Below are positions 9,201 to 59,185 of a stretch of DNA of 64,000 nucleotides, piece after piece. Where the stretch lies: contig CAJINV010000006.1 in assembly GCA_905178155.1 (NCBI GenBank), forward strand, positions 2,892,658 through 2,956,657. Direction: 5' to 3'. Source of the DNA: Amoebophrya sp. A120 (lineage: Eukaryota > Protista > Dinoflagellata). The notes beneath the pieces are model-generated. The model ran no database searches and was not told where the DNA came from. It worked only from the letters and a program-made list of their open reading frames with translations. The position numbers and the translations under genes are program-made. Positions within the stretch are counted from its first letter, which is position 1. Each line of letters begins with the position of its first letter.

Positions 9201-10853
9201 GGGTGAACTATGTATGTAGCGCTTAGGGCCCTTCCGTACGGCCAATTTGTATGCCCGCAACGGGGTTCGCCTAAGTCGGTCATTTATATGCAAGGCGTTG
9301 GGTTACCCGGTCGGCAGAGCCGATCCACAACGAACGAACGAAGACCTGCATTTATACGAGTACGATACTTTTGCACAGCATACTGCAGAGAATCGTGCCC
9401 CACCGGCCCGGCGTGGAAAAAAACCTCACCAAGGAGGAAAAATTCTTCCTGTATTACAGTGAAAAATGCCCCCACCCCCAAAGTTGCAGAAATTTGTGAT
9501 GCGAAATTTTCAAATGAAAACTTTTTGCCATGCATGAAAGGAGTATGAATCTTTCTGATGCAGAGTCTAGGCGTGTATCGCATCGCTTGCATGACAAGCG
9601 CCGCTCTTGCCGGGATCTTCTGCAATACAAACCTTTGCGATTCACGATTGGAAATCTGTGATGCTGATAGATGCAAGAGGGCGAATGTTTCTATTGGAAA
9701 GGTTTGCAACACAAATGCTCCCAATTTCGGGGGTGGGGGCATTTTTCATTGTAATATCCTGGTGCCGCAGTTTACCGACAAAGTCCCACTCTATGGAACG
9801 ATTGCACAACTCGCTCACTTGTTCTCGAGGCTTTGTCTATTCATCTTCCATTTTCTAATTTATTAGATTTACAAACGGCGACACGCAGAAGCAGAAGCAA
9901 CTAAAGAATTTTTTTTGCAACGGCCTCATCTGTAGTCGTGTGCAAGATGACAAATGCTATAAATGCATCATCAAAAATGAATAAAAAAGAGAGCGAAAAA
10001 ATAATCCGGAGGAGTCGTTGTGCAATTTCATACCCTCGGCGTGCCCTACGGTTTCGGGCGGATCGCGATGCAGAAATCAAAGGGCTACGACAGGAACTTT
10101 CAACCCAGATTCGACGAGCTCCGTCGTTTGGGCGGCCTCAACCAGGAGATCTCGCAGGCGAAGGCACTGTATCCTGTGCAAAAGTTGTATATATCGTACT
10201 AGTATAAACCGCATGACAAATTTCTCAGCGTGATGAAAAATGGAACTTGTAATGCGGATTTAGGTTGAGAAAAATATTTCTCATGCGTGACTGCGATTAA
10301 TAGTACGAGGTGCGATACGACTTTTGCAATGCATAGACTGCTATCCTGTGCAAAAGTATCGTACTCGTACAAATGCTAACGCAAGTCTTGCATTACAAAT
10401 CTTGTTTCCAAGGCAAATCTGCATTACAAATTTTATTTCTCATGCTGAGGAAATTTGTAATGCATTTATACGAGTACGATACTTTTGCACTGGATAACTG
10501 CGGATGAGTCGGAAGAAGAAGAAGGGCGTTGCGGTATAACCCGCTCAGCTGTTACAATCTCAAGTGTTACAATAGAATATGAAAATCTGTGATGCAAAAC
10601 ACACATGGCCTAGCCTACTCCCACAGCATTGCGCATGACAAGTTCTGGAGTCCCAAACTGCACGAGAATTATGTGGCGAAATTTGTAATGCAGAAAGTGG
10701 AACGCTGTGCGGGTCTGTCATGCTCATCATGCAACACAAAATCCAGATTCTATTGTAACGTTTGAGATGGTAACCAATTTGAGCGGTTCATATGCGGGGG
10801 AAATCACGGTGCTTGGGGAGGGAATTGGTGGTGGAAAGGAAAATTTGTACTGA
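210..10853 (+). CDS. 3' part of a multi-exon gene: EF-hand-like motif plus coiled-coil tail, probably the C-terminus of an ion-channel-type protein (5' end lies upstream of the window)
   Basis: Removing the TAT..ATA elements at 1, 278, 6637, 8111, 9452, 9792, 10170, 10342 and 10535, plus a large intron (~643 to ~6598, boundaries uncertain), gives ...ELAVEEFIGACMRLKGEAKSKDSFIVQLSVIQATEKIEFLGKTTER-LVDRMDVVLKRLQRIVPHRPG...VPLGVPYGFGRIAMQK...ALRMSRKKKKGVAGEITVLGEGIGGGKENLY, ending TGA 10851-10853. EEFxxxCMRLKGxAK resembles the post-S6 EF-hand region of dinoflagellate channels (recognised from memory, not searched). Confidence 0.65.
708..2281. mobile_element. Old GC-rich intronic insertion with subterminal inverted repeats
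   Basis: IR GTCAACGACGCTTTT(T/C)TCAAGTATGCTGA(A/G)AATTTT at ~798-833 versus ~2183-2218; flanking direct repeat TTACTTAATA at 698-707 and 2282-2291. Boundaries are uncertain. Confidence 0.55.
2468..6540. mobile_element. 4.07-kb non-coding insertion flanked by an 80-bp target duplication
   Basis: 2388-2467 equals 6541-6620 (1 mismatch). Perfect 16-bp asymmetric subterminal IR CCAGTACACGAAGGGC at 2493-2508 and 6521-6536; hairpin at ~2629-2664; internal degenerate repeats. Confidence 0.85.
3875..5285. repeat. Dispersed degenerate repeat: A/T tract followed by CGCGCGCTGCGCGCGCGCAG(A/G)CGCC, about 10 copies
   Basis: Copies near 3890, 3995, 4060, 4165, 4258, 4390, 4486, 4711, 4985 and 5262. Confidence 0.85.
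6782..7832. mobile_element. 1.05-kb insertion flanked by a 58-bp target duplication, nested in a family A introner (6637-8104)
   Basis: 6724-6781 equals 7833-7890 (2 mismatches). Hairpin CCGCGGCCC-TTTA-GGGCCGCGG lies just inside the right end; internal ~76-bp duplication at ~7160 and ~7258. Confidence 0.85.
8225..9340. mobile_element. Insertion with 7-bp TSD nested in a family B introner (8111-9382); spans the assembly gap
   Basis: TSD AAGACCT at 8218-8224 and 9341-9347; termini CGTTCGT...ACGAACG; poly(A) 8492-8516 precedes the gap. Confidence 0.75.
8517..9042. other. Assembly gap
   Basis: Run of N. Confidence 1.
9452..9756. mobile_element. Introner family C, representative (~305-335 bp)
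   Basis: TIR TATTACA(G/A)TGAAAAATGCCCCCACCCCC; repeat TCCTG/TCCTG. A close reverse-complement copy lies at 20817-21125; others at 28961 and 57968. Confidence 0.95.
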
Positions 10854-29828: not shown

Positions 29829-32800
29829 ATGGCAACTACACTGGTAGACAACATGCCCTACGGGGAAAACAAGCTGGTTATCATAAGGAAAAATCGCCTC
29901 TCCCCATATCGAAAAGGAACTTTGTGATGCTGATTTGTGACCACAAATCAGCTTTGTCTTGCGTACAAGGCAAACGGGATCCAACATGTTGCGCATTGTA
30001 CAGCGAGTCTGTCATTCCTTTTCACCTATGTCAAACTTGTTTCTCATGCTCAGCTGCTAGCCGGATGCGTCCCCAAATGGGCTTAGAATATGCCGACAAG
30101 TAGGTCTTGCTGGAATACAAAGCTCGTTTGATGTGATGTTCGCAAATCCAGCAACGCAAACTGTCTTTTGAATATGGGGCGGGGGATTTTTTCACTTTGA
30201 TACCGGTGGTCCCCGAAGAGGTCGAGGCGCTGGTCCCCGAAGAGTATCAAATGCAAATATGTGTGGGTCTGGAAGGATGCAACTTGTCGTGCTAAGTCTG
30301 GATAGTACAAAAATTTGTGTTGCATGATCACCAAAAGGTCTCCACTTTTGAACAAGTTTAGCGGCAGTTTGTCATGCAGGATAGACATGATAGAGACTTC
30401 GCAGAACCGGTCATGCTAGGTCCTGCATTGCAGACGAGACCTCCTGGGGCATGGAAAATATGCATGACAAGTTGCATTCTTCCAGACCCAGACATATTTG
30501 CATTTGATAAAGAGGCGGGGATGCCCACCGCCATGCTGACCCTCTCGCCGTCTCCGCAGAAGGCGGGCGGTGAAGTGGAGCCGACCACGTGCACCGGACC
30601 TCCTATGGAATTCGCAACTCGCTTACCTTCTCAACTATTACATGAATTTGTCGTGCAAAACTTGTAGTGTACCATCATCGTCCCCACGACCAAGCTGCTT
30701 CGCATGACAAATTCGCAAAGGGCTAAACAGCGCCTAATCTGTGCGAGGAGCTGTGTTGTAATGCTACAGGGGCATGCAACCGGAACCGCTCCTGTTGCAC
30801 TCACTTTTGCTATTTTTGCATCACAAATTCGTGTAAAAAACAGTTGAGAGTATAACGTTTGAGAATCCCATACCTCTCCAAGAAGATTTGGCGAAGCACG
30901 GAGGGCCGAAGACCGGGGACAAGCCGGCTGCGACCGGGAAGCCGAAGGGCTATGCGAAGCGGGCCGGCAAGCGCAAGCAGGTGGTGATGCAGCGCTACCA
31001 AAAACTGGGTCGGGACTACGGTTGTCACCTGCGGAACAAGAGAGCCACGGCCGGCGCCGCCGCGGCCGCTGGCTTTGGCTCGATGAACGCCACCGAGGTG
31101 CAGGCGGTCCGCCGCACGACGCCGAAAGCCTCCTCCACCTCCGGTCCCGCTGTCCAGGCCTTTCTGGCCATCACGGAGGAAGGCGAGGCTGTGGAAGATG
31201 AGAACACTACTGTCGAGAAGAATAAGCGCAAAGCCGAATCGGAGGTCCCTGAACTTGTGCCGCGCGAACCTGCTGTCGTCAATGACAACGAGCTGGAAGC
31301 GACCGGGATCATGCTGGAGATGGTCCCGGAGCTGCATGCTGGAGAGGCGGTCCCTGACGGAGAAGAACCCGCGGAGCAACAGCTGCAAGAAGGCGAAGTT
31401 ATTGCAAAGCAACCCGAAGCAGCCGGCAACATTCCACCCATTCTGGGCGAAGTGGCAGAAGAACACGACAAGCCTGGCAGTGACGAAGTCGCCCCCGGGG
31501 TGGTGCCCAATATCCACTGCAAAAGTATCGTAGTGGTAGTACTAATTGCAACCATGCATGACAAAAAATCCAATCTTCTATCTGATTTATAGATCTTTCA
31601 TGACAAGTTCCATTTCTCAGAAAAATTTAAAATTTGTATTTGTCTATGTATCGCAATTTTTCATACTAGGATTAGGATGATACTTTTGCAATGCATACCG
31701 GAAGATGGCTTTCTGCAAAAGACACAGGAGCATTATGGAGGCAATCTCAAGCGCTAAGTGCTACATTGGTCGCTGTTCTTACATGAAGACTTGTCATGCA
31801 GAACCACGAACACGATCACTTTTGACACGATCAAGCGATTTTGCCTGAGACCTCGTATCGACGCGCTAAAAGATAGCTGCGCTCCGAAATTTTGTTTTCC
31901 GTGCCGACTCTGTACTCAAATTCAAAAATACGCGCAGGGGCGGGCTGCCCCCTTTCGCTTTCCTGTGCAATGATTTCTTTACTGGTCTTGCATTGCAAAA
32001 TGAAAATTTTTATAGACCGGCGAGCAATGTAACCACCTTTGAGAGTCCCTCCATAAGCAGGAGCAGGCGAATATGGCATTCTCAATCGTTAGTACATTGT
32101 TAGCTGTTGCAAGAGAAGAACACGACTTGTAATGCAAAATCAAGTTCAGGAGCTTCGACGCGATCCAGCAACTTCATATGGCCGAACAGGAAATCTGTTC
32201 CAAATTTCTAATGCGAGGAGAGGCGCAACAACAAAATATTAGATATATGTGCTCCTGCCTTTCCGTCCTGCTGCAATTCTTGCATCACAAATTCGTGCAT
32301 GAGTTGAGAATGTAACGGTTGAGAATCTGATAGCGAAGAAGATTCCTGCCGATGAAGAAAAAACGCGGGCCAAGGACGACGACGTGGAAGGAAAACACGG
32401 GTTTCTGCAAAGGGAGGGCCAAGGAAATAAACAAGCTGTAGCGAGCGGCGACACCAGCGCCCTCTATTCGTCGGCATGTATCGAGTGCGTTTGCAAGGCA
32501 TATCAGGAAGCACGTGCTGCAGACGCAGGTTTGCTTCCTCGAACGACGAAGTGGCGCTCCACGCCTTTCTTGAAGGCTTTCGCGGACGCGGCAACCGATT
32601 CCGCGGGCTGCGTAGAAAAATGTCCTGAATCCACCACGACCTTGAAGAAACCCTTGACGGACCTTCAGGGTCTTGGCTTCACCCCGAATTCCTTGAATCC
32701 CAAAAACTGGGTCGGAAATCCGTTCTTCTACCAAAGTAAAAAACGCTCCCACAGGAAATACCTTGAGATGGAATCCATACAAAGCAAAAACGTGGTCCGA

Positions 32801-34100
32801 GTGTATGACTCGGACGTCATACATTATAAACAAACACAGTAAGAAGTCCAATTTAGATTTCTTTGTATCTGACAGTGCAGCAGACACAGAGGTGGGGTAT
32901 TGTTGATGCTCCTGCAAAGTGCAGCGTCGGACAGGCGGCAACATCCCGTGCCAGTATGGAGACAAGAATTGTATGCTGTGCTGAACCGCAGACGAAAGCA
33001 CGAAAGACAAACTCCCTCCTACCTGCAACTACATGCCTCACAACTGCCACCTCTTACTTACGCAGTACTGCGGCACGGCTTCTGCGTGTGCTTGTGGGTT
33101 GTGGCGAAGCGCGCAGCTGTACTAGGTCCAGCATGCCACATGAAAACTGCGCCGGCTTGGCTCCGGGGGTATCAATGCAGCGCGGGAGCGTTTTTTACAT
33201 GTTGATAGGCCCAGGCGAAAGTTGCGCGCGGAGCTGCGTAGTGTATTGGGTGGGGCCTGCGGCGGTGGGCACACGATTACGGTGACGTATTCGGATGGGA
33301 GGAAGTACACCGGAAAGGTGGACGAGAGAGGCGAGCCGACGGGCGACTCGGGCAAGATGGTTTGGCAGGATGGGTTGGAGTTTGTCGGGAACTTCAAGGA
33401 CGGCCAACCGCACGGCAAAGGGACGATGAGCATGCCGGATTTGGAAAATGAAGGTGGGCGGAAGGAGAAGGAAGGGGACGACTGGGGGTATGGAGAGATC
33501 AAGTATCCTAGTGGCAGTAGTTACGTGGGCCACCATGTTGGAATGAGGTATGGCAACGGCACCACAAAACTGAAGTATGGCAGGGGCACATACACATTTA
33601 CGGATGGCAAGAGTGCGTACGAGGGACAGTGGTGGGACGACGAGTTCAACGGCGAGGGCACGTACACGCACGCGAACGGCGACCGGTACGAGGGACAGTT
33701 GACGGGCAACCAGAAGAACGGCAAGGGCACGTTCGAGTGGGCGTTGCTCGGCAAAGTGTACGTGGGACAGTGGAAGGGCGACAAGGTGCAGGGCGAGGGC
33801 AAGCTCACGTGGAACAGCGGCGAAATGTACGAGGGACAGTGGCACGACAACAAGAGGGACGGCAAGGGCGTGATGACGTGGTCCCCCAACAGCGCGGCAA
33901 AAGTAGGCAATTTTGTGGGAACGTGGGTGAATGACATGATCAGCGGCGAGGGCATCCTCACGTGCAACAATGCCAAAAAGACCACCCACGACGGAAACTG
34001 GAAGACGGAAGAAGGGCGCACATTTTTGGTTTCGGGGGAAAATGGCGCTCATGGCGGCGACCTCCTTGAGCTCTGCAAAGAGCCCGCCTCTTCGCAGTGA
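29829..34100 (+). CDS. Multi-exon protein with low-complexity N-terminal region and C-terminal MORN repeats
   Basis: MATTLVDNMPYGENKLVVPEEVEALVPEE... joins in frame across elements at 29879, 30245, 30604, 31511, 31734, 32072 and a decayed intron at 32825-33207 into the MORN exon. The start codon is tentative. Confidence 0.65.
33208..34100 (+). CDS. Terminal exon encoding tandem MORN repeats
   Basis: ORF 33222-34100 has repeated YEGQW.dd...G.G.Y/W..G units (YEGQWWDDEFNGEGTYTHANGDRYEGQ, YVGQWKGDKVQGEGKLTWNSGEMYEGQWHDNKRDGKG). Confidence 0.9.
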
Positions 34101-35065
34101 GTCTTGCGCAGCAACACTGCCCTCGAACTCGAAGGTAAGCAGATTCGAACTATACTAAAGTATCCATGTCGTGTTTATCTATTATCGACCTCGGCATATT
34201 AAGACTCAGATGAATGTGTCAAGAGATTCCCACGGCAAACTCCTCCACCATCAAAGTGCAGCGCCACAGCCAGACTGCATACAGAGTCCTGCCCTTTTGC
34301 CTGTAGCAGTAGCGCAGCACCTCTATTGTGGTTTCCGGTTTCGATTTTATTTGAACGCGTGCAGCAGCAAGGCCAAATTTCTTTATCTTCCACTTTCATG
34401 CAATAAATCGGAGTTTTTTTTTTGTAGTTTGTGCCATTTTGTTTTTTTTTTTCGGGATCACGCATGGCTCGACAAGGCCGCGACCGTTCAGTTTTTTTTC
34501 CGGCCTTTTGGCCGACATTACTTTCCCAAGTAGAACAAGAACAAAACAAAAAGAGCGCTAAAGGCCGGGGCCCCCGAGTTCGTTGCCGTTGGTAGGTGAG
34601 TAAATGCTCGGAGTCTTTCTCTTTGTCTTTTTTAAACATTCAAGCACACAGCACCTCTGCACCCAGCAGAAAGCTTCGCCTTCGGTATGAACAGACCGGA
34701 AGGCGTTGCTATGTTTGTGCCTAGAGTTCGACTCGTTATTATCAGATTTTTTTTTGCTATTTTGTAGAAAATAAATGGCACTTTCTAGGATTTTTCGTTT
34801 TCCTGTCGCAAACCGTGCTTATTGATTCCACCCTCATCGTATCAAAGGCAAGAGTGTCTCGGTCTGGAAGATTCTGAACTTGTAATGTTGTCTCTGGATT
34901 CTGAAAAAAATTGTATTGCATGACCAGCAAGGGGACTCCACTTTGTGCTACTCGGAGAGGGCGTATCTCATGCGGTAGAGGTATCGCAAAGCGCTCTAAA
35001 AATCTGGGATGCTACGGCATGCATCACAGACGTTTTTGGGTCATGGAAAATATGCATGACAAATC

Positions 35066-35417
35066 CGCTGCGACTGCTCGCCTTGCTTGCGGCTGCTCGC
35101 CATGAAAGCAACTACATTGTGGCTTGCCTCACTTTTTTAAGAGGGGTTTTTTCGTAGATGGGTCTGTGTCATAGTAGATACTTTACCGCTTTTTTACTTT
35201 TCTTTTCTCCCCCGGCGCTAGTGTTATTGGTTTGCACACAAAGTTATCCCTACTTAGATAACGACAAAAGCTCACCCTGCAGCCGTCCCAGGAGCTCTTT
35301 GCTGTTGTCTCTCGGTAGTGATCGCTTTGTCCAAGTCGATTTCTGCTAGAGTTTGCTGAGTATGCGGCTACCGTTTTAGGCTATTTACATAGGGACGCCC
35401 TGCCCTTAGTTTCCCAA
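35066..35417. mobile_element. 352-bp insertion with 11-bp direct repeat inside a family A element (34840-35466)
   Basis: CATGACAAATC at 35055-35065 and 35418-35428; no TIR seen. Confidence 0.6.
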
Positions 35418-38400
35418 CATGACAAATCTAGAAATCTTCCAGACCCAGACACTTTTGCATTTGATACATCGGGGCCATAGCCACGTGCTGCCAGGGATCT
35501 TCATCACCGACAAAATAGAGGCCATTTATTTTCCGAACCATATTTTTCCGTGGATGCTCTTAGACTTCAGATCTACATCTACTTCTGCTTACTTCGGATC
35601 AACATCATGCGGTCTCGGACCAAGACGGTGTCCAGCACATTAAATGTGACATGCAAATGAAGATGATATCTCTGCTCAGTAGTAGTTGTAGTAAAATATG
35701 AAACAGTATGAAATTCAAGTTCAAGCACGTATTCTTCCGTGTACTCAGCGAGTTTCTAGTACTGTCGGCGCTATTCTTGTTAAAGTATTTCCTTTATCAG
35801 TTGCCTTGCACCTGCAGCAGTATTCTGCAAGGCAAAAACAAGAACAGCGGGCTCAGTCCTTCGCTGGATTTTCCGTATTTTTTATCAACTTCTCACTTCA
35901 GTAAAGCTAAAATCGAAGGTGTATACCAATACTTACACTCGAAGGGAGAAGCGGTCTAAAAAAGTCAAAAAATCAAAAAAAAAGCCTAATCGACGTCATT
36001 GGAAGTGGTAAAAACGTATACTCATTATTCCTTTTTCATCCTTGTTTGGTAGTAGTAGAAGTAGTAGTGCGTACAACTCTTCCATCGGGTGTCTTTTCCT
36101 CGCGTGTTGATTCCATTTCAACATGCACGGGGAGGGGAACGCGAACGACCGAAACGATATACTTCGTCATGCACTTCTACCTGAAACCATTTTCGCACCC
36201 GTGTAAAAAACACCAAAAGTAGGGGGTAGGCCCAGCAGACGCAGAATTATTTTGCCTTGTGCAAAAAGAGAAGCAGAAGCAGAATTTTTACAATTGAAAT
36301 CCTTCTTCTTCTTCTTGAGTACAAGCATGCCGGGGCGTAGAAGAGGGCCCTGGTGTTTACATTACTCAACATGACAACTCTGCTTGTCACATTTATTTTC
36401 ACTGTCCGACTATACGGATCGGTCCGTCATGGGAGGTCCGTCATTGGCGGTCAGTTGCTTTTCTGAATGCAGTTTTGATTTCATTTTGGGAGGTTATTTG
36501 TGTAGTATTTCGCATCCGAACGCTCCGAGGCATTTTTGTTCAATACAAATGCCAGGAGATGAGACAGGTTGCAGAAATATGAAAAATGTAAGAAAGTTCG
36601 AGTTGCAGTCAGAGCGAGTTTGTTTTACCTATATTACGAGCCTGTAGTTAGAACTACCGGCTATAGCTCTACAAAGCAAGCGCTTTTCTTCAGACTCTTG
36701 CTGTTCGCGCCAGCGGCTTGACTTCTTGCTAGAGCCAGTACTTTTGAGCGGGTATGAATGATCACCCGCGTCACTTTTTATTCTTGATTCCCACTTTGTT
36801 ACTTCTTTGTTACTTCGCATTTTTGTATGAATTACTTTTATTAAATAAAATGAATTATCGACCCCGTTTTGATATACTAGCTTCCGGTTGATGTGTGCGT
36901 GGTGTCTCACGATGCCGTGCAAGTTATTTATTGCAATTATTTTTTCTGGGTCTGGAAGAATGCAAGGCGTTTCATGTTGCTCGGCCAGCATGTCTCTCAT
37001 GTCTGTGATACATGTAGCGCGAAAGTAGCGGGAGCGCTTTGCCATTCTTCTGCTATGCAAGCATAGCATGAGTCTGTCGTGCAGAACATGAATAACGATT
37101 ACCTAGCCCCGCAAGAACTTGTCATGCGGAGACATCAAAAGTTGTAGCGAAGCGTGCTGGTAATTCTTCTCCAAGAACCAGAAGCACGAGTTTTCAGATT
37201 CAGACATATTTGCAATGCGTACAAATGGTGCTAGTAGTCCCAAAGTAGTAGTTTTCGGCGTTGTTTAATACGAGGTGGTAAAAAAAAAATTCCAGCTGGT
37301 GCCCCACAGCTAGATCGACTATTTTGCTAATTTAAATAAGTATATAAGACACAGTATCGAGACTGACTTTGATGTGTAGTTTGTTTTCATATCCATACCA
37401 TATATTTGTTGTAGTTGAAGATTTTGAATTTCGTCTGCTCTACCAGTACAGTACTAACGATGTTTCATCAAAGCCGCGTTGAAATTCTGTAAAAGAAAAG
37501 CTAGGGAGTGGGAGAAGGAGCAGATGAAGTAGGAACAGGACCACAAACACGTTGTCCACCCAATCAAGGGAGGTCAACGCGTATTGAGGAACGAGCAGTG
37601 TAGTTGGGAACACGAGCTAGCTTTACCTCTCGCAGATTTTCGATCGTCATCGCGCAATATAATAACTACCGAATTGCTCTAACTCTATTGCTTTATAGGG
37701 CAGTTGCCCTTGCTGGAAACGAAAAAAGCAAAACGAGAAAACTTTCGTCTCCACAGAAGCAAAAGGATTTCATTTGAAAACAAGAAGGGAATAAAAACAA
37801 AAAAAAACCTCCGGCAGTAGCGGCCCACTGTTGCAGACGCGGCCGCGGTTGCTTATTATGATGCCGCTTTTCTCAGGAGAATGTAAGGCCGCGCGTGTTC
37901 TTTGCTATTGTTACCTCTTTCACAGGCTACTTCTGTCGTGTTGGTATCCTCTTTCCCGTTTATATTGTGGTCTGCGTCGGCCACCTGACAGGCATCGATC
38001 AGAGAAGAAGAACTGCTCGATGTGTGGTGTGATACAAGAACATTGCTGCACCCAGCCGCACAGAGGACTAGTAGGGCCGTTCTTGCTTTATGTCATTTTG
38101 TTGTACTGGCTTACTATGTCACCCACGATAACTATTATCTTCTCGTCGTCGTTCTCCTTCTCGTATGTAAACATTTTTCGGGGTGAGCGTGGTGGTGTCG
38201 CAGTCGCAGAGAGAGTTTATTTCGTCCGTCACGAATATATTTTATCATATTGATAAATGATATTCCACCACTACTCGAGGAGAGGCGTCATAATTTTGGG
38301 AACAAACATATAAACTTCTCAAATATGAGTTTTCCCCACCTGCCGTGGTTCGTCGTGGTCTTTTTCGCAATTTTGTCGTGTAAAAAATCCTCTAGGACAT

Positions 38401-38604
38401 CATGGTGTACTTTCTCGTTTTAGTTGTGTAAGGGAGGAAGAGCTAGATTCATCTTCCTCTTTATCTTTTCAATAAAAGACCGTGCAAGTAGTTCTTGTAC
38501 AGCAGCGAGAAGGCGAAAGCGAAGAAATGATCAGATGTAAAAGTAGAAAAGATTTTCAACATCAGGAAAAGTAAAATATTTTCACAACAACAAATACAAA
38601 AAAA

Positions 38605-41600
38605 ATGTTCGCCCCGCTGTTTTCCTCCCCGGAGAAAAAGAAGAAGAAGCGCAACTCCACAAATGCTGGTGGTTCCGCCGCTCTCTCCGAGAACAAAAGC
38701 AGCGCGAAGCGGCGCGTGTCCAGCACCACCAAGGTTGTCACGTTTCACGACGGGGAGGACGAGATTCTCACCGGCGCTGCAGACCCGCGTGGTAAGTCAT
38801 CGGCGCGCAAACAGGACCGGCTTGTGTCGCCGGAGAAGCAGGTCGTGGAGCCCTCGTCCCGAACGACGAGCGTGTCCCCCTCAAAAGTGGGCCTCACACT
38901 GGAGTTCACGAGCGAGGACCATTCGCCCGCGAAAAACGGGTCTGTGCTGCAGAACCTGAGCAATAAAAATGCAGCCAGCACTGCGTCGCACACTGGAAGT
39001 AGCGGGTCGACAAGCTCACTCGCACCGCCACCGCTGTGGAGCAACAAGATCGCGCAGGCACACAGGTTATGCAGTGCAAAAGCATCGTATTCGTATTGCA
39101 ATCATGCATTGCAAATCTTTTTCTTGAGGTAGATCAGCATTAACTCATGCTGAGGAAATTTGTAATGCATTTATGCGAGTGCGATACTTTTGCACTGCAT
39201 AGAGGTATATGACAGCAAGCAGGACGACGGGCAGTGCGGACCTGCAAGCGGAAACCCACACGACGAGGACACTTTCATCAGAAGATACAACCAAGCGGCC
39301 CCATGGGGGGGATGAAACGAGGTCGAGGAATATCCTGAGTAAAAACGTCCCCACACCAGAGTCAGGATGGGGATTTTGCAACACAAACCTAGGAGTGTTG
39401 GGAGTCACGCATGACAAATTGCACTCCGCAGTGTAGTGCTGGTTAGCAAGTGCAGCCGCATCACAGATTCATCTGCTCATCCTGTTCACAGCGTCACAAA
39501 TTCCAAAACACGATTGGAGATGGCTCTCATGGGGATGCGCATTACAAGTCTTCCTGTCTTTGCAAATCTGCATTACAACTCTGGCGTGGGTACGTTTTTA
39601 CTCAGGATAAGGAACAGTAAGTTCCGTCAGCACTTCGATGTGCAGCAGGAAGCGCTGGCGTTGATCAAGAGCCTCGACGAAGAGGACGACGACCACGTCA
39701 TGGCGGATGCCGGGGGACTATCAACCGCAAATACGTCTGGGTCTAGAAGATTGCCAGATTTGTCATGCTAGTCCGGTATGACTCTGCACTCTGTATTGCG
39801 TAGGGCCATCGGAAAAGCCTCTCTCGCCTGTCATGCAAAAAAAAACGCAGTTTCTACTCATGCGGAATGCGCAGCACAGAATCACGAAAAAACTTGTCAT
39901 GCTTGGCTGCGCGTTACGGTTCACTTATTATTCACTGACCTGCATGGATCTTCACAAGTTTCCAGACCCAGACATATTTGCATTTGATAGGGGCCAAGAA
40001 GCTCTTACCAGAGTCACGGATTCGGCGGCGGCGCCACAGCCTCTACCGGCGGTCTGCACATTGTGGAAGGCGTGCATCGGTCGCCCAAGGCCTTATCGAA
40101 TGCAAAAATGTCTGGGTCTGGAAGATTGCGAGATTTGTCATGCTGATCTGGCATGGCCCTTAAATCTGTATTGCGTGGCCACAAACAGCCTCTCTCGCCT
40201 GTCATGCGATAACGCAGTTTCTCATGCGGAATACGCAGCACAGAAGCACGAAGCAACTTGTCATGCTTGGCGGCGCATTACAGTGCATTTGTTATTGACT
40301 GACTTGCATCACAAGTTTCCAGACCCAGACACTTTTGCATTTGATAGGCCTCCACGCGCGACGAAAGTAGCCGGGAAGGGGGCGCGCGGGGTGCCGGCGC
40401 GCTTGCCGGGTTGGCACAGCAGGGTGCAGTGGATCGTGATGATCCGTCGCTCGGGGGCAAGGAGAAGATAAAACGACAACAGTCGACGGACCGCATGTTG
40501 CGGCAAGCCGAGGGAAAGCGGTTCATGTATGGGGTTCTCAAACGCTACATTCTCAACTGTTACATGAATTTGTCATGCAAAAGCACCATCATCATCCACG
40601 CGATCAAGCTGCTTCGCATGACAAATCTGCGTAGGGCTAAATAGCACCTAAATCTGTGCGGAATTTGTAATGCTACAGGCACAATCACCCCCCTTTCACT
40701 TTTCCCATTTGCATCACAAATCCATGCTACAGTTGAGAATGTAACAGTTGAGAACGCCATAGCACGAAGAACAACCGTAAGAGCGGGGGCGTCGTGGAGG
40801 TGGGAGCCAGTTTATGAGAGTGCGCAACTTCGTCTCCTCCTCGTTTTCATTTCCCATGCAAAACACCAATGGCACACTTCCGCTTTCGCTCCTGTCGCTA
40901 CTTATTATGCATGACAGGGTCTGGTAGCTTAAATCGCACTAAGTACTCCAGTGCAAATGATTTGTCATGCAAAACCGGCATTCTTGCTAGATACTTGTAT
41001 TGTCGTTCATGCTAAGGAAATGAGGGGGAGGGAAAGTTGTGCACTGTCATACAGTTACACCGGCGGGGACCTGAGTATCGGACGTAAGGCGGTCGCGCTC
41101 GAGGATCCCAGTATTGAGAGGAAAAATCCCCTCTCCCCACATCGAAAAGGTATGTTTCCGAAAATTTGCCTTGCTGATTTGTGACCACAAATCACGCCAG
41201 TCTTGCAAGAAGACAAATGCAAAGGGTTCCGCGCCATTATGGAAGCGATTTGGCATGCTGTTGGGCCTAGGGGGCAGCCGTTTGTAATGCTAAACATACA
41301 ACTAGACCCAAAGCAAACGCCCCTCCCTAGGCTGAGGATCTGGCTGCCATGCCGTATTGCAAGAAGGCGCGCATTTGTGTGCGGAAATCCAGCATCAGAA
41401 ACTTCGTCGCGATATGGGGAGGGGGGATGTTTCCTTCCGATACCCAGTCTGCTGCAGTCGGAGGAGAGCATCGAACTCACGCTATCCGGAGAAAAAACGT
41501 CCCCACACCAGAGTCAAGATGGGCAATCTGCTAGACAAATCAACCAGCTGTGGTTCTTGCTTCGCATGACGCGTTCTTTGTCCTCATAGTGTAATCCTTG

Positions 41601-50600: not shown

Positions 50601-53600
50601 TTGTGCAGTGTCATAGCTCATCTTTCTCTTCCAAGTGTCGCCGAAAGACAATCAGCCGACGCCGGACAAGGTGATCCACACCATGATGCTCATCCGCGTT
50701 CTGCGGCTCTGGAAGTACACCCAAGCCGCGCTCTCCGAGTCCCCCCGGTTTCGCCGCTTCGGGTTCGTCCTCGACCGCTTCTATATCAAATGCAAAAGTG
50801 TCTGGGTCTGGAAACTTGTGATGCTGAGTGGCGTAGCATGAGGAGGCCACAAGTGCTGGCTCAGCATGACAAGTTCCTGAGCTTCTAGGTGTTCTGCTTA
50901 TTCTGCATGACAAATTGCGTCTCCGCATGACAGAAAAATGCGGCTCTTGGGCAACGTGCATGACAGATTTAAGAGTCATGCCAGACAAGCATGACAAACA
51001 TGCATTCTTCCAGACCCAGACATTTTTACATTTGATATTCTACCAGCTGCGTCGGCCGCTCTTGTTCGGTTCCATTCTGTTCATATCAACTGCAAATATC
51101 CCTCGGATGTCTGGAAAACAAATGCGAGGTTTGTCATGCTAGGCTAGCAGGATTCTCAAGTCTGTCATGCGCGTTAGTACCCAAAAGCCCTTTTTTTCTG
51201 TGATGCAGAGTCGCAGTTTGTCATGCAGAATCAATAGGCAACAGCAACACTTAGAAGCTCAGAAGCTTGTCATGCTGTTGAGCCATCATTTGTGGTGCAC
51301 TCATGCTACGTCACTGAGCATTACGAGTTTCCAGACATCATCCAGGGATATTTGCATTTGATAGTTCGTCATGGCCTGCTACTTCATGTCCTTTCTGATC
51401 ACCTTATCCCACGAAAAAACTGTTTCACTGTGATGATTTTGCAAGATCTGCATCACAAGTTTGTTACACATGACACAGAAAATTTGCCATGCGCGCTTTC
51501 AAAGGGAAAACCCCGCTAAAGAGTCAAGGTCTTGCAGGTGTAGCAAGCCAAATAGTTCTGTGTTCCATTCTATGCATCACAAGTTCACAGTGAAACAGTT
51601 TTTCCTTGCGATATACCTCGCAAGTGAAACAGTCGGTGATGGATGGCGATTACTTTTATGCACTGCAAAAGCATCGTACTATAGTATGAATTGCATTACA
51701 AATTAGGTCAGCATGAAAAAATAAAATTTGTCATGCGAAATTACCTAAAAAACCAGATTTGTCGTGCTGGTCTGGCATGTATAGGAGTACGATACTTTCC
51801 CACAGGATAACTTTGCTTACATGGCGAAAATCAACCCCTCGTTTTCCATTCTGGACTACTTTTTATCGCAAGAAAAAAGTGTTACAGTTACACATTGTGT
51901 TGCAAGACCGGCAACACAGGCAACCTTTCTCATGCAGGAAATGCTTGGGAGCCTCGTTTCCTTCCTGTTTTCCCTTATAATTTTCGCATTACAAGTTTTC
52001 TGTGCCACACAGAGAAAATTTGTGATGCAGAAACTCCAACAAATGTGTAACTGTAACACTTTTTTCTGGTCATACTTTTCCGCGACTTTTTACTCCTTTT
52101 TCACCATATATCCCACGAAAAAACTGTTTCACTGATGTGGTGATTTAGCAATATCTGCATCACAACACAAGTTTGTTACACACGACGAGACAGAAAACTT
52201 GCCATGCGCGCTTCCCAAGGGAAAAACACGGTTGAAACTCGAATGTTCTATGCAGGTGTAGCAAGACAAACACTTTGGCGTTTCGTTTTCTGCATCACAA
52301 GTTCACAGTGAAGCAGTTTTTTCTTGCGATACCATCGCGCAGATGACCTCATTCGACCGCTGGCTTACGGGCATCATCCGCCCGATGGGTGAAGTATGGA
52401 TTGCAAATATGTCTTGGTCTGGAAACTTGTGATGCAAATCTGTGAATCGTGGGCGCACTACAATATGCAGCTAAGCATGACAAGTTTTTGCACGTGCCAT
52501 GTGCTTCGTTTTCTGCATGGCAAAGTGCGTTGTTCCATGACAGGCAGGAGGTCCCGTTCCTGCTTACGCCTCACAGATCCAAGAGTTATGCCAGACAAGC
52601 ATGACAAGTCCTGCATTCTTCCATACCCAGACATTTTTGCAATGCATAGGAAGTTCAGTTCACATTGGCGATTCTGCTCATGCTTGTGGTTGTGATTATT
52701 CAGTTTGGCCTAGTGAACAACATCACCGGGCTGTTCGTCGCCTACGTCATCAAGTCGGGTGAAGTATGAACTGCAATAGTAGATCTGATACTCGTACTAA
52801 TTCTTGCAGTCATGCATTACAAATCTTTTCCTTCAGGTAAATCCGCATTACAAATTTTATTTCTCATGCTGAGAAAATTTGTAATGCATTTACACAAGTA
52901 AGTACTACTATCGGATACTTTTGCAATTCATAAGAAGAACAGCGCGATCAGAATCGCTTCGTCCGCGAGGCCAGTATCAAATGCAAAAATGTCTGGGTCT
53001 GGAAGAGTGCAAGTTTGCCATGCTTGTCTGGCACGACTCGCGAATCTGTGTTGCATAGGCACGAAAAAGGAGCGGCCCTCTTTTTACCTGTCATGCAAAA
53101 ATGCAGTTTGCCATGCGGAATACGGAAGACATAGCAGCCAAAAAATTTGTCATGCATAGCTGCGTATTGCAGTGCGTCTATCCTTCACCTTTAGCATTAC
53201 AAGTTTCCAGACCCAGACATGTTTGCAGTCCATAGCCAGGAGGCAGGCCCGATTGAAGCTGAAGGCGATGACGCGGATGCGCGAACTAATCGACGCAGTG
53301 TCCGTTCCGGCGGTGGTATCAAATGCAAATGTAATCGTCCCTGGAGGTCTGGAACTGGATGGGTGCAGCTTGTAATGCATCGTCCCCCAGATTTTTGTCC
53401 AAAAATTTTATAAAATCTGTTTTGCGGGGGGTAGCACAAGATCCTGTTCTAAAACACGGCTTTTTCTCAAAACGGCATATGTAGTTCTGGACGAAAGCCC
53501 GAACTAAAAAAGGTAACAAGCTGTCATGCTACATTACCCTGCATTCCAACATGACAAACTTAAACTTGTGCACTCCTCCACCCGGCGTCCAGGGATGTTT

Positions 53601-56600
53601 ATTGCAGTTGATAGGTCGAGGTGTGCCGCAAAGAGGGGAAGTACTTTAGCTTCCGCCCCGTGCTACCTGCGGACTTCAACCAGGACGCCCTCAAGCAGGA
53701 GGGCTATGAATTGCAAATATGTCTGGGTCTGGAAACTTGTGATGCTGGTTGGCGAATGATTAGGGTGCCGCAATTGCCGTTCCAGCATGACAAGTTTCTG
53801 AGGTGGTCGGTGTAGTCTATCCTGCATGACAAACTGCGTTTCCGCATGACAGAAAATTGACGCTCTTGGGTAACGTGCATGACAGACTTGAGAGTCATGC
53901 TAGTCGAGCATAACAAGTCTTGCATTCTTCCTGACCCAGACACTTTTGCAATCCATAAGGGCGGGGGGCAAACGATCGAGGACGTTACCCGCACGATTGT
54001 GAATCCCAATACGGTATCCAGTGTAAAAACGGGGCCCACGTCCCGTAGTCGAAATGGGAAATCGGCTAGACAAATCAACAAGCTTTGGCTGTTGTGCATG
54101 ACATCAAGTTTGGCCTCGTAGTGAAGTCGATCCTGTTTCTACTTAGCTAGTTTCGCAGCATCACACACAGAGCTACTAGCATATAATCACGCTGCTTCGA
54201 CGAGCATCACAAATTCAAAAACACGACTACAGAGAATGCTTTTCATGGGGCTCCGCATGAGAAGCATGCTTAATACCATGCAGATTTGCACGCCAAATAT
54301 GGGGTCGTGGGGACGTTTTTACATAGGATACACGGGCGAGGAGGAGACGGTCGTGGTGAAAAATTACGGGCAGCGCATGTTGCTGCAGAGAGAAGACTTG
54401 GAACATGTAATTCACTACGTTGAGCCCCCGGTTATCAAATGCAAATATCCCTGGATGTGGTCTGGAAACTTGTAATGCTGATTTGTGAATAGTGAATTCT
54501 CTGTAATTATGCACAGCCAAGCATGAGAAATATTTGCGCGGTTTCATCGTGTTCGTGTGTTTGCGCTGTCCGCATGACAATAGCTGCGTTTTGATGCTCA
54601 TGACAAGCAAGAGGGTCGTCTCTTCTTGGACACGCATCACAAACTCTCCAGTCATGCCAGATCGATATTTGCAATGCATACCGGTTATGAAATGCAAAAG
54701 CATCGCACTAGTATAATCGCATGACAAATTTGCTCAGTATTACAAATGAAATTTGTAATGCTGTTTTACCTTTAGGAAAGGGATTTGTCATGCACAAATG
54801 CGATTACTACGAGTACGATTCTTTTGCACAGCATACCGGTGCCCTCCAGTCAACTGCAAACGGTGACTATCCAAGAAAAAAAGATTGTACGTGTAACTTT
54901 ATTGCTGGAGGATCAGCATTACAAATAGAAATATTTCTGGCATGACAGCAAAAACCTGTCATGCGCAGATAGAACGTGAAAGCGCCCTTGAATGGACCCT
55001 AGAATGCATCCCTACTAGCATGACAGACGCAATCATCTTGCAAGCTGCCCATCACAAATTTACACTAACAGCGTTTTTATCTTGGATAGAGACGCGGGCC
55101 TCGTTTCTCAGCTTCCGCAACCGGGGCAAGGGGCATATGGGGCTCTCAACCGTTACATTCTCAACTGTTACATGAATTTGTCATGCAAAATTCCCATGCT
55201 TTGCCAGAGGATTAAGGTGCTTCGCATGACAAATTCTCGAAAGCAGGTCAAACAGCATCTAAATCTGTTGCAAATTTGTGATGCGAGACTCGCAAGCTTG
55301 CCCCTTTCCATATTGCTGCGCTGGCATCGCAAATTCGTGTAACAGTTGAGAATGTAACGTTTGAGAACGCCATAGGGCAGGAACAAATGCCCGAGCCGCC
55401 AGAGCCAAAGTATGAGGGTTCGTTGTTTTTGGTTTAAATTTGAGAAAAAAAGATAATATCGTGAAGCATCCAGCACCAGCATGCACATGCAATTGCAAAT
55501 TTCGTATCAAAAAAAATTCTGGAGAGGGCAGAGCCACAGAATAAATTCAATGTGGTGCATCATGATCATGATTGCTTTTGCTAAATAATAAAATAGACCA
55601 TCGAAATAGAACAAAAAAAAACCCGCCGCAGGATGAGCTGGAAAGAAGCCCAGAAAGCTATCAAAGTGAAAAAAGCCGCTATCCCATACTCAAAAGAAAA
55701 TTTGTGTTGCTGGACTTGTGTACATAAATGAGCTTTGTATTGCAGCAAGAGCTTGACTTGTGCTTGTCGGCATATTCTAAGCCCGTTTGGATAGTACGCA
55801 CCCGTCTAGCAGCTGAGCATGAGAAACAAGTCCGACAGAGGCGAAAACACAACATGACAGACTGGCTGTACAATGTGCCACATGGCTGCAGCCGTTGCCT
55901 TGTACGCAAGACAAAGCTGATTTTTTTATGGTCACAAATCAGCGTCACAAATTTCCTTTTCGACATGGGGACGAGGGGCGATTTTTCCTCACAATAAAGG
56001 CCATCGGTCTGCGAACCGACGAGGTGCTCGACTGCTACGACTGCCTCCTTATGGATTGCAAAAGTATTGTACTCGTATAAATGCATTACAAATTTACTCA
56101 GCATGAGAAATCAAATCTGTAATGCTGATTTACCTTAAGAAACAGATTTGCAATGCATGATTGCAATACGAGTGCGATGCTTTTGCATTGCATACTCCTG
56201 GAGGCGGACACGAACTGTCACGGGTATCAACTACAAATATCCCTGGATGTCTGGAAGAATGCACCTTGTGATGCTATTTTTGGATTCTAAAAAAATTTGT
56301 GTTGCATGACAAGCAATAGGAGTCCTGTCCAGTTCTTTTTGCCACGTGGAGAGGGTATTTCTCATGCAGGATAGCAGGTATCAAGAAGCACTCAGAAATA
56401 AATCTGTGATGCTAGGGCATACATCACAGCCGTCATGGGTCATGTCAGGTGTGCATGACAAACCTTCCAGGATCCCCAGACACATTTGCATCTGATAACG
56501 GGTTCGGCGTTACCACTGACGCCTTCATGGGTGCGCTGCTATCCTACGCGGGAGTTTTGTCTGCGCGAGATCTGTTTTCAATCGGGTGCACGATGCGCAA

Positions 56601-59185
56601 GGCGACGCCAAAGATCATTAACATCGAGGAGTCCTGCAACTTAGCCATCACGCATATGGAAGTGTCAGAATCGAAAGCGACAAAATCGAAAAATTTGTGA
56701 TGCACAAAATCGATGGCAGTTGGAGCCTCAGTCTCCAAGTGGCGCATGACAAATTTCGGGAGTACCCGAATCCAGTCTGTCATGCTGTTTGCCCAAGTAA
56801 GATTCCTCCTGTAGTGCTACTCTGGCAGCACATTGTATACCCCTAAACAGGCTCACAATCGGCCTCATTTGCCTGCTCCCCAATACAGGCCTTCAGTGCC
56901 CTACCTTTTATGCATCGCAAAATTTTCGATTTTGCCGATTTCGATCCTGACACATCCATAACGCAGTGCGAATTTATCGCGATCGCGACCGAAAGAATTC
57001 ATGCGCTGCTGTTCGAGCTCTACCAGGCAAAGGGAGCGCCGCCACCGGGGACCATGAAGCGCGTCACGAGCCACTATCAAAAGGAAAAATCCCCCCTCCC
57101 CATATCGAAGCGGTATGATTCCGAAAATTTGTGTTGCTGATTTGAGACCACAAATCACGTCTGTCTTGCAAGAAGACAAGTGCAGAGGCTTCCGCGCCAA
57201 TATGAAAGCGATTTGGCATGCTGTTGGGCATAGGGGGTAGCCGTTTGTAATGCTAAACAACTAGACCCAAACGCTCCTGCCTAGGCTGAGGATCTGGCTG
57301 CGATGCCTTACTGCAAGACAGCGCGCATTCGTGCACGGAAATCCAGCATCAGAAACTTTGTCTCGATGTGGGGAGGGGGGATTTTTCCTTGCGATAGCCA
57401 CAACAAGACGCGGCCGAACTACCCACGCCCCTACCCGTATGGACCTGTCAGGATTGAAATTGACAAAGTTCAAAAATTTGTGATGCATAAAACCGATACC
57501 ATTCGGAAGCCCAATTTCCAAGCGGCGCATGACAAATATCGACGTCAGCGAAATCCAGGTTGTCATGCTGCTTAGCGAAAGAAGGCATCCTTTGCCATAC
57601 TACTTTACCAGCTCTATCACAATTATCCCGAAACAGGCTCACGATCGGCCTCACTTGCAATCCCTGCAAGACAGTTACTTCGTGCCTTGCATTTTATGCA
57701 TCACAGATTATTTCAACTTGTCGATTTCAATCCTGACACACCCATAACCCGCCAGTCTTGGAGCCACCAAGGGGGGTTTTGTCAGTCGGTAATATTTCCA
57801 TATTGTTGTGCAGAAGTACCGAACATTCAATTTCAATCATCTTCTGCGAAAGTTGGTCTGTCATGCGGACTCAGTGCAATGGACTACATGAACTTATGTG
57901 ATTCATCATGAAACGCACTCAACACTCTCAGGCGTGCGTGTCAAAGATGCCGAAGAAGCAGCGAACCGTATTACACTGAAAAGTGCCCCCAGGAGGAGCC
58001 CTGAATTTGCAAAAGTTTCTGATGCAAAGTTTCATCCATAGTGGAAACTTTTTGTCTTGCACGAGAGGGCAGCTATCATTCTTTCTGATGCAGCAGTAGA
58101 TGCGGAACCTTCTAGGCGCCGCGTATGAAAGCATCTTTTGAATAGCAGGGCCGGCCCTTGCTGGGCCCTTTATTCGCAACACATATTTTTGCTGATCAGC
58201 ATTGCAAATCTGTCTTGCTGGTACACGCAATATGGGAAATGTTTTCATTGAAAAGTTTTGCAACACAAATGCTGCCTGGAGGGGGCAGTTTTCAATGTGA
58301 TAGACCGAAGAAAACGGCAAATGGAGGAGGAAGAGGAAGCCATGAAACTTATCAAATGGGAAAATCCCCCCTCCCCATATCGAAAACGAAATTTGTGATG
58401 CTGTATTTGACGTACGCAAGTCGACTTGTATTGCTAGAAGGCCAACAAGAAGATCCGCAGTTGTGGCCTCGTTTGGTGCAGACAAGTTGCCATGCTGTTT
58501 TCCATTTCCAGCTGCCTCCTGTTATGCTGAAGATGCAAGGCTTTCCCACTCCACCCAGCACTACAGTTGTCCGCATCTCTTCGCCCCTTCTAGCATGACA
58601 AAGCTGATTTGTGGCCACAAATCTGCAGCACAGATTTATTCCGTTTTGATATGGGGAGCGGGGATTTTTCCTCACAATAAAACTCGGAAAAACCACCTGG
58701 CATTTTGGCATGCCGGTCGGCCACAGTCGCGACCACTTATCACAAGAAAAAACTGTTTCACTGTGAACTTGTGATGCATAGAATGGAGCACAGAACGATT
58801 TGTCTTGCTACACCTGCAAGACATTGGATTTTTAGGCGTGTTTTCCCTTGGGAAGAATTTTCTGTATCATGTGTAGCAAACTTGTGATGCAGTTCTTGCA
58901 AAACCATCACAGTGAAACAGTTTTTTTGTGGGATACCATTACTACCCTATGCATTGCAAAAGTCTCGCACTCGTTTTGATGGCGGTCATGCATTACTTAG
59001 CATGACAGATGCAGATCTACTATCTTCTTTGTACGTTGACCAGCATTACAAACTCCCTTTTCCATGTTGGTCAACATCAAACTTGTGATGCGATTTCTAC
59101 TAGTACGATCCTTTTGCAGTGGATATACCCGGATCGTTTTCGCCGCGGTTCCGACGAATCCAGCGAAGACTCAAGCGACTTTTAG
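38605..59185 (+). CDS. Single-domain 6TM voltage-gated-like cation channel (ion-transport domain) with degenerate EF-hand tail; about 60 introns
   Basis: Hand splicing gives S1 VILISVILFCNLLYIGVDVD (~43.7-44.1 kb), S2 DFFFYLFFLAELIFRL (~50.0 kb), S4 MMLIRVLRLWK (~50.7 kb), pore FFTIAQMTSFDRWLTGIIRP (~52.1-52.4 kb), S6 LVVVIIQFGLVNNITGLFV (~52.7 kb), and stop TAG 59183-59185. The junction at ~42060-42470 is unresolved (TGA at ~42078), so the 5' part could be a separate gene. Confidence 0.75.
39331..39609. mobile_element. Introner family E, representative (~280-370 bp)
   Basis: TIR TATCCTGAGTAAAAACGT(C/A)CCCAC; repeat AGGAA/AGGAA. Others at 15850, 16679, 18847, 41483 and 54015. Confidence 0.95.
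46770..46992. mobile_element. Introner family L, representative (~210-225 bp)
   Basis: TIR TATGCAAGAAAAAAAC.(G)TGTAAGTGTA; repeat GACAC/GACAC. Others at 1-209, 43287, 48075, 54868 and 63928 (truncated by the window end). Confidence 0.93.
49641..49949. mobile_element. Introner family G, representative (~305-320 bp)
   Basis: TIR TATGG(A/G)AG(T/C)GTCAGG(A/T)TTGAAATCG; repeat CGCAT/CGCAT. Others at 18482, 25451, 46077, 48362, 56655 and 57438. Confidence 0.95.
50380..50615. mobile_element. Introner family K, representative (~230-280 bp)
   Basis: TIR consensus TATGA(G/C)AGTGCACAACTCCCCC; repeat GCTCA/GCTCA. Others at 278, 9792, 26812, 40813, 43042 and 46439. Confidence 0.9.
55136..55374. mobile_element. 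Introner family J, representative (~235-320 bp)
   Basis: TIR TATGG.G.TCTCAA.CGTTACATTCTCAACTGTTAC; repeat GGGCA/GGGCA. Others at 30604, 31734, 32072, 40528 and 50075. Confidence 0.93.

Follow-up and report, generated by a model that had tools for sequence, protein, structure and literature searches.

A stacked pair of introner-type elements on one CCGGT target in an Amoebophrya sp. A120 gene, and how the two may be removed

Are two introns that abut without an exon between them removed together, or one after the other? The question is raised by a locus in the dinoflagellate Amoebophrya sp. A120. It lies in a stretch of 64,000 nucleotides (nt) of contig CAJINV010000006.1 (assembly GCA_905178155.1, positions 2,892,658 to 2,956,657 of the forward strand), and this whole stretch is referred to as the window. 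At window positions 54428-54840 the order is CCGGT, element A, CCGGT, element B, CCGGT; in its context the doublet reads GAGCCC CCGGT TATCAAATGCAAATATC...GATATTTGCAATGCATA CCGGT TATGAAATGCAAAAGCATCG...CGATTCTTTTGCACAGCATA CCGGT GCCC. It interrupts the reading frame of the protein P0002 within a coding exon. The parts of the locus are as follows.

54332-54427, + strand: upstream exon of the P0002 gene, 96 nt, ending ...EDLEHVIHYVEP; it matches contig pieces from runs X5-X8 with 0 differences and is in frame with P0002.
54428-54432, + strand: first copy of CCGGT, the 5-base-pair (bp) target duplication; it matches the other flank of element A at 5/5 positions.
54433-54680, + strand: introner element A, 248 nt, with the ends TATCAAATGCAAATATC and GATATTTGCAATGCATA; it has an inverted repeat, related copies and a hairpin of its own in the predicted fold.
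54681-54685, + strand: middle copy of CCGGT, both the right flank of A and the left flank of B; these 5 nt are all that separates the elements.
54686-54835, + strand: introner element B, 150 nt, with the ends TATGAAATGCAAAAGCATCG and CGATTCTTTTGCACAGCATA; it has an inverted repeat and related copies, which can be aligned.
54836-54840, + strand: third copy of CCGGT; it matches the other flank of element B at 5/5 positions.
54428-54835, + strand: 408 nt absent from the messenger RNA (mRNA), as placed by the contig joint; the interval can slide by up to 5 nt owing to the repeat, and the cut rule derived below would put it at 54432-54839.
54836-54864, + strand: downstream exon, 29 nt, encoding PVPSSQLQT, as given by contig pieces and translation.

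The inverted arms found by a repeat finder are 17 nt long and 82% complementary in A, and 28 nt long and 79% complementary in B. The terminal motif is TAT CAAATGC AAA in A and TAT GAAATGC AAAA in B. A BLAST comparison in the window gives these TAT..TGCAAA termini and one internal stretch of 20 nt as the only sequence that A and B have in common, and the two are for this reason classed as different families within one terminal-repeat class. Each has relatives in the window. Besides A itself there are 7 A-related matches of at least 150 nt (65-79% identity), and besides B there are 18 B-related matches of at least 130 nt (65-86% identity); A-like and B-like matches occur on both strands. The initial annotation, which was made from the sequence alone, had proposed that two introner-type elements of different kinds share a single 5-bp target, in the layout CCGGT-A-CCGGT-B-CCGGT. 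Its coordinates and layout are exact, and the families and the shared CCGGT bear out the two elements.

What is missing from the mRNA can be read from contigs of four runs, X5-X8, which come from two samples of one study and share 15-18% of words with a 10-kb stretch. The contigs were placed on 52001-57000 and, at 97% likeness and a 1% share, on 54250-54950. They are taken as transcripts because every listed intron is skipped and the frame is kept. A contig of 5536 nt from X5 and one of 5666 nt from X8 skip at least 15 intervals on 52001-57000, and 54427->54836 is among these. The joint 54427->54836 is found in one contig per run in X5, X6, X7 and X8; it skips 408 nt (248 + 5 + 150 + 5, that is, A, B and two copies of CCGGT), and 5 letters fit on either side. 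No other joint is found on 54250-54950 in any of the four runs. The exons joined at the 15 joints give one open frame of 337 codons, reading ...HYVEPPVPSSQLQT....

The mature junction is VEPPVPSS, both in the transcript contigs and in the annotated P0002. Removal of the 408 nt alone reproduces P0002 across the junction, with an exact match of 41 amino acids. Removal of A alone or of B alone was tried as well; neither matches P0002 across the junction. An exon of 3 nt would remain if the cuts lay 1 nt outside each inverted end; this form gives a mismatch to P0002, and the contigs skip 408 nt rather than 402 nt. The initial annotation had allowed for this 3-nt exon, and P0002 and the length of the skip contradict it. 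Its other proposal fares better: if each element is removed with one copy of the repeat, the exon between them has zero length, the end of the intron of A being the start of that of B. The junction that it had suggested reading, VEPPVPSS, is present without extra residues. Use of unrelated sites, or retention of one element, had been named as the outcome that would speak against it; neither is seen, and 408 nt are skipped in 4/4 runs.

The elements can be compared with an intron class that is already published for this organism. In the portions of Farhat et al. (2021; PMC7789003) available here, more than 60% of A120 introns are described as non-canonical, and 29,850 repeated introner elements are reported. 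Their inverted repeats, 8-20 nt long, open with TAT and continue with seven variable bases and three or more A; the boundaries are overlapped by direct repeats of 3-5 nt. The same portions state that the A120 gene models were derived from transcripts, give no general transposase for A120 and call the splicing mechanism an open question. Single A120 genes contain tens of introner-derived introns, according to the part available of Gozashti et al. (2025; PMC12130899). The gene that hosts the doublet was located by tblastn on the window from which the elements had been removed.

~38605-~59190, + strand: host gene of P0002, an 'unnamed protein product' of 1586 amino acids from Amoebophrya sp. A120.

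An exon 1.7 kb downstream of the doublet is 100% identical to P0002, which contains ...EDLEHVIHYVEPPVPSSQLQT...; no Pfam family was found in P0002. A and B agree with A120 introner elements in every sequence feature, namely the host gene, the TAT ends, the repeats and the family membership. CCGGT flanks A and flanks B, the mRNA joint is ambiguous by 5 nt, and no placement within this ambiguity gives GT..AG. On these features A and B are assigned to the introner elements in the sense of Farhat et al. (2021). Organism, TAT inverted repeats, direct repeats of 3-5 nt, lack of GT-AG, RNA-supported removal, occurrence as repeated families and lack of a transposase gene are thus shared between the published introners and the doublet. 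Crowding is also alike, with 42 of the 85 elements catalogued in the window lying in the P0002 gene. The difference is that here two elements sit on one target and their introns abut without an exon. The doublet is a new configuration of an intron type already published for A120. No mention of a stacked arrangement was found in the available portions of the literature on introners, the supplement of PMC7789003 (Figs S19-S25, Table S7) aside.

For the catalogue, the window was scanned for elements of 90-450 nt whose TAT...ATA ends are complementary at 11/16 bases or more and whose flanks repeat 5 bp with no more than one mismatch. All element counts and spacing numbers come from this one 64-kb window. 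The scan yields 85 elements, all within 9452-63723, and each of 5 Markov shuffles yields 0, which places the element architecture far beyond chance. The elements are 134-367 nt long and add up to 21,112 nt. The flank repeat is perfect in 55 of them and matches at 4/5 positions in the other 30. The target 5-mer is nearly free of consensus; the only bias is at the middle base, with G or C at 45 of the 55 perfect repeats. A and B have the sequence features of miniature inverted-repeat transposable elements (MITEs): they are short, with terminal inverted repeats, a target duplication of fixed length, many copies and no transposase gene. Family B is spliced in both orientations in the P0002 gene, forward at 56050-56194 and reverse at 52765-52932. 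None of the 85 elements is nested in another, though elements fill about 39% of 9452-63723; insertion or survival seems to be restricted to exon sequence.

Perfect flank repeats leave the joint ambiguous, and it is the imperfect ones that locate the cut. In the contigs, repeat position 4 at the element 53317-53613 (GGTGG / GGTCG) is the base of the upstream copy. For the element at 51084-51363 (GTTCA / GTTCG), P0002 has V and not I, which gives position 5 to the downstream copy. If cutting is uniform, one cut would lie 1 nt upstream of the TAT end and the other 4 nt downstream of the ATA end, and an intron would consist of 1 nt, the element and 4 nt; the mRNA would keep repeat positions 1-4 of the upstream copy and position 5 of the downstream copy. 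There are 18 elements with imperfect repeats in the P0002 gene. Six are informative and all fit this rule; nine fit any placement; in a 21-nt test no placement fits the other three, two of which are near another element. When all catalogued elements are removed by the rule, tblastn matches of P0002 span 33 element junctions, with 6 mismatched residues, all at the ends of matches. Applied to the doublet, the rule gives CCGG/T at all three cut sites, and the 3' cut of A and the 5' cut of B become one and the same bond.

It is rather likely that the doublet arose by two independent insertions on one target and that each element is excised separately, as a hairpin unit in its own right, with either one going first. 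A and B would have inserted at two separate times. The first insertion would have duplicated CCGGT; the second would have taken one copy as its 5-bp target and produced the third. Two insertions in place are favoured because the three copies of CCGGT are identical, and a composite brought in from elsewhere would carry a foreign 5-mer in the middle. In the pre-mRNA, each element would pair its own ends into a hairpin and be removed as a unit, cut 1 nt outside its TAT end and 4 nt outside its ATA end. Removal of either A or B would leave an ordinary single-element intron, which would then be removed in turn. Overall, the process would be equivalent to recursive splicing through an exon of zero length, by spliceosomal or other chemistry.

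The predicted fold bears on this reading and on its closest rival. According to the latter, the doublet is spliced as one intron of 408 nt; the 5' end of A and the 3' end of B set the cuts, and the inner ends are ignored. The joint of 408 nt is the only one observed in the contigs, and this length barely exceeds that of the longest single element (367 nt). TAT and TGCAAA/TTTGCA are common to both outer ends, between which about 9 base pairs could form; the 3' end of A and the 5' end of B can also be paired (13 nt, 85% complementary), so that an outer-plus-inner pairing exists. However, in the minimum free energy fold of 54418-54850 (-143.5 kcal/mol; z = -5.1 relative to shuffled sequences) two separate hairpins stand next to each other, whereas forced pairing of the 5' end of A with the 3' end of B gives -128.7 kcal/mol, which is 14.8 kcal/mol worse. 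In the ensemble, the tested own-end pairing has a probability of 0.9998 in each element, and the tested outer pair has one of 2e-10. In addition, A and B are each a complete intron of their own kind elsewhere in the P0002 gene. A second doublet in the window also speaks against the single intron.

10170-10496, + strand: second doublet, found by the scan, consisting of the family-B-like elements 10170-10335 and 10342-10496; 6 nt (GACTGC) lie between them and leave an exon of 1 nt.

Its target repeats, CACTG/GACTG and ACTGC/ACTGC, overlap and are offset by 1 nt. The exon upstream of it is a 100% match to P0001, an Amoebophrya sp. A120 protein of 955 amino acids with an ion-transport domain; a protein search with the last-exon peptide gave no match in the 'near' length class and P0001 in the 'longer' class. 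Separate removal of the two elements by the cut rule takes out 331 nt and reproduces 62 amino acids of P0001 (...QAKALRMSRKKKK...). Removal as one intron with the same outer geometry takes out 332 nt and yields ...ALG-stop, in place of the annotated ...ALRMSRKKKK. The fold and the second doublet moderately favour separate, sequential removal of A and B as the model of processing, and splicing of the main doublet as a single intron is on balance doubtful.

A number of points weigh against separate removal and against the history proposed for the doublet. X5-X8 are labelled as RNA by guess only. The X5-X8 contigs contain no splicing intermediate, that is, no exon-A, A-B or B-exon boundary of this locus; however, assembled contigs drop rare forms, and their lack of intermediates is no argument for one-step removal either. 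Short contigs within A and B have loose ends unlike the doublet locus and are taken to come from other copies of the families. Two RNA runs of raw reads with the same species label, X9 (92 reads) and X10 (212 reads), have 0 reads on the doublet; all their reads are partial fits, on repeats near 52.9-53.1 kb and 54.0-54.2 kb. The junction of the second doublet is known from annotation only, and with flexible cut geometry this doublet would also fit a single intron of 331 nt that has a 4-nt repeat. An alignment of 15 family-B copies has compensatory changes at 0/18 of the predicted pairs of the family-B stem. It therefore offers no evolutionary evidence for a conserved RNA hairpin rather than for conserved DNA ends, and it is neutral as to whether the hairpin is required. 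As for the history, identity to a rough family majority is 64% for A and 84% for B (B from an 18-copy alignment); the alignment of A is poor and mixes subfamilies, and this divergence gives only a hint at the order of insertion.

The cut rule, too, is open to objection. It rests on one boundary per limit, and one of these comes from the annotated protein. The annotation looks unreliable at one close pair of elements, 58738-58935 and 58948-59125, which are 12 nt apart and leave an exon of 7 nt. Here the uniform rule gives a C-terminus ...GHSRDHYYPDRF..., like that of the homologue P0003 (...GHSRNDYYPDRF...), whereas the annotated P0002 has ...GHSRDHLPGSF..., from a different reading frame. The mismatch of P0002 at 58738-59125 is probably an annotation slip at the microexon; otherwise it would reflect alternative cutting.

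A wider proposal can be put forward tentatively. The introner hairpin may be an autonomous excision unit that works in either orientation and has a fixed geometry, with cuts 1 nt ahead of the paired ends and 4 nt beyond them, and abutting elements may be removed successively through an 'exon' of 0 or 1 nt. If this were true, the autonomous hairpins together with the scarcity of exons of 2-23 nt would point to a machinery that measures hairpins and has an exon footprint of about 24 nt. Excision would then be unlike spliceosomal splicing, in which signals are read, and stacked doublets would be its natural assay.

It should be noted that the stack itself is not unusual for such a crowded sequence. 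The exons between the 84 neighbouring pairs of elements (gap minus 5 nt) are 0, 1, 7, 11, 24, 25, 26, 27, 27, 29 nt long and upward. With an insertion hazard of 0.0125 per nt, taken from the spacing range of 24-60 nt, 1.05 exons of 0 nt are expected and 1 is seen; for 0-1 nt the figures are 2.08 and 2. For 2-23 nt, 19.8 are expected and 2 are seen (Poisson P = 6e-7). Exact stacking is what random insertion predicts at this element density, about once per 64-kb window, because one such stack is found where 1.05 are expected. The unexpected part is the near-absence of very short exons of 2-23 nt, not the stack. This gap reflects either selection against very short exons or insertion that avoids the 2-23 bp beside a resident element. 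The initial annotation had proposed counting such doublets against random insertion and had implied that they are rare, and in the window this rarity was overstated. Taken as a whole, its interpretation stands with regard to the two elements, the zero-length exon and the mature junction; the 3-nt exon and the implied rarity do not stand. The stack can be regarded as an expected by-product of extreme element density and not as a special device.

The spacing also bears on a second rival, an end-directed hot spot, in which the transposition machinery prefers the end of a resident element and doublets are more frequent than at random. The window has spacings of 0 and 1 nt, and those of 2-23 nt are depleted about ten-fold (2 against about 20 expected). 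A third junction, with two ends 6 nt apart, occurs at 8092-8123. The window has three places at which two ends lie 5-12 nt apart, and 100 shuffles have none; shuffling destroys elements, so this comparison has little weight. However, the 0-1-nt count equals the random expectation from 24-60 nt, with no excess; the depletion at 2-23 nt is explained equally well by selection against very short exons, and the figures come from one window. The target preference is weak, being limited to the G/C bias of the middle base. A hot spot of this kind is clearly unlikely. It is highly improbable that A-CCGGT-B is a composite element that transposed as a unit by means of the left end of A and the right end of B: these ends are of one class and could in principle be used as an outer pair by one transposase, but the middle 5-mer equals both outer 5-mers, which would happen by chance in about 1/1024 of units built elsewhere, the window has no second A-like 3' end placed 5 nt from a B-like 5' end (the junctions at 8092 and 10323 differ in spacers and partners), and none of 93 metagenome matches to the junction pattern was identified as a true doublet.

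These 93 loci come from a scan of metagenomes for two ends separated by 5 nt, and 15 of them have some element-like pair. Four of these 15 (L001, L011, L056 and L067) have many overlapping pairs and are taken as tandem arrays. At L048, the one locus that was read through, the match consists of a single element followed by exon-like sequence and is not a doublet. L048 (positions 1-1093) has elements at 199-409, 451-613 and 701-973, with the same architecture and internal motifs as the elements of the window. On these shared features, a relative of this genome is present in an environmental assembly.

Two independent insertions with separate removal of each element, which is the reading preferred here, invite comparison with other systems in which introns meet or overlap. 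In the part available of a preprint on Drosophila (bioRxiv 10.1101/006163), ratchet points with zero-nucleotide exons are described, at which the 3' and 5' cut sites are juxtaposed without an exon and upstream removal recreates a usable 5' site. Juxtaposition is also found in the doublet, as with any uniform placement of the cuts the intron of A ends where that of B starts. However, the Drosophila sites are canonical spliceosomal AG/GT within one long intron, and their intermediates are documented. The doublet has a CCGG/T junction and introns without GT-AG; it consists of two transposon-derived hairpin introns brought together by double insertion, and the contigs contain the full skip only.

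Nonconventional introns of euglenids, as treated in the available part of a review (PMC11282704), are similar in having inverted ends that pair the ends of the intron in RNA, repeats that resemble target duplications, non-canonical borders and a presumed MITE origin. They differ in lineage and in end motifs. They are reported to come out as circles once the conventional introns have been removed, and no counterpart is known for Amoebophrya. No mention of stacked intron pairs among euglenid introns was found in the available part of the same review. Twintrons and stwintrons (PMC8469720, as far as its available part goes) likewise have two introns at one site and are removed stepwise. However, they are nested, a splice signal is interrupted and the order is obligatory, whereas the elements of the doublet are side by side, 5 nt apart, and could be removed in either order.

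Stacked doublets offer ready-made test cases for how Amoebophrya removes its tens of thousands of introns without GT-AG. Removal of A and B in one step or in two would lead to an identical mRNA, with a difference only in the intermediates and excised products. At the doublet with the 1-nt exon, the mRNA itself would differ between the two routes, provided that the cut geometry is fixed. The stacked pair of A and B serves as a useful natural assay and is not a new mechanism in itself. The window yields three constraints, namely the cut rule (1 nt before, 4 nt after), the exon gap at 2-23 nt and the lack of nesting; these may be more informative leads than the stack.

Other features of the window concern the elements more generally. 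A short motif, GCATGACAAAT / ATTTGTCATGC, recurs in both orientations inside elements of several families (54571-54793 and many others). The third junction (8092-8123, in the region 8034-8220) is made up of the 3' end of one element, the 6 nt GCTGCA and the 5' end of another element; both elements look truncated, and the junction adjoins a run of N at ~8517-9040, which is an assembly gap. The interval 32332-39068 is a 6.7-kb stretch free of introners. It holds an open frame of 318 codons at 33144-34100 that is rich in repeats of the G-x-G / YEGQW type, which we take to be candidate MORN repeats.

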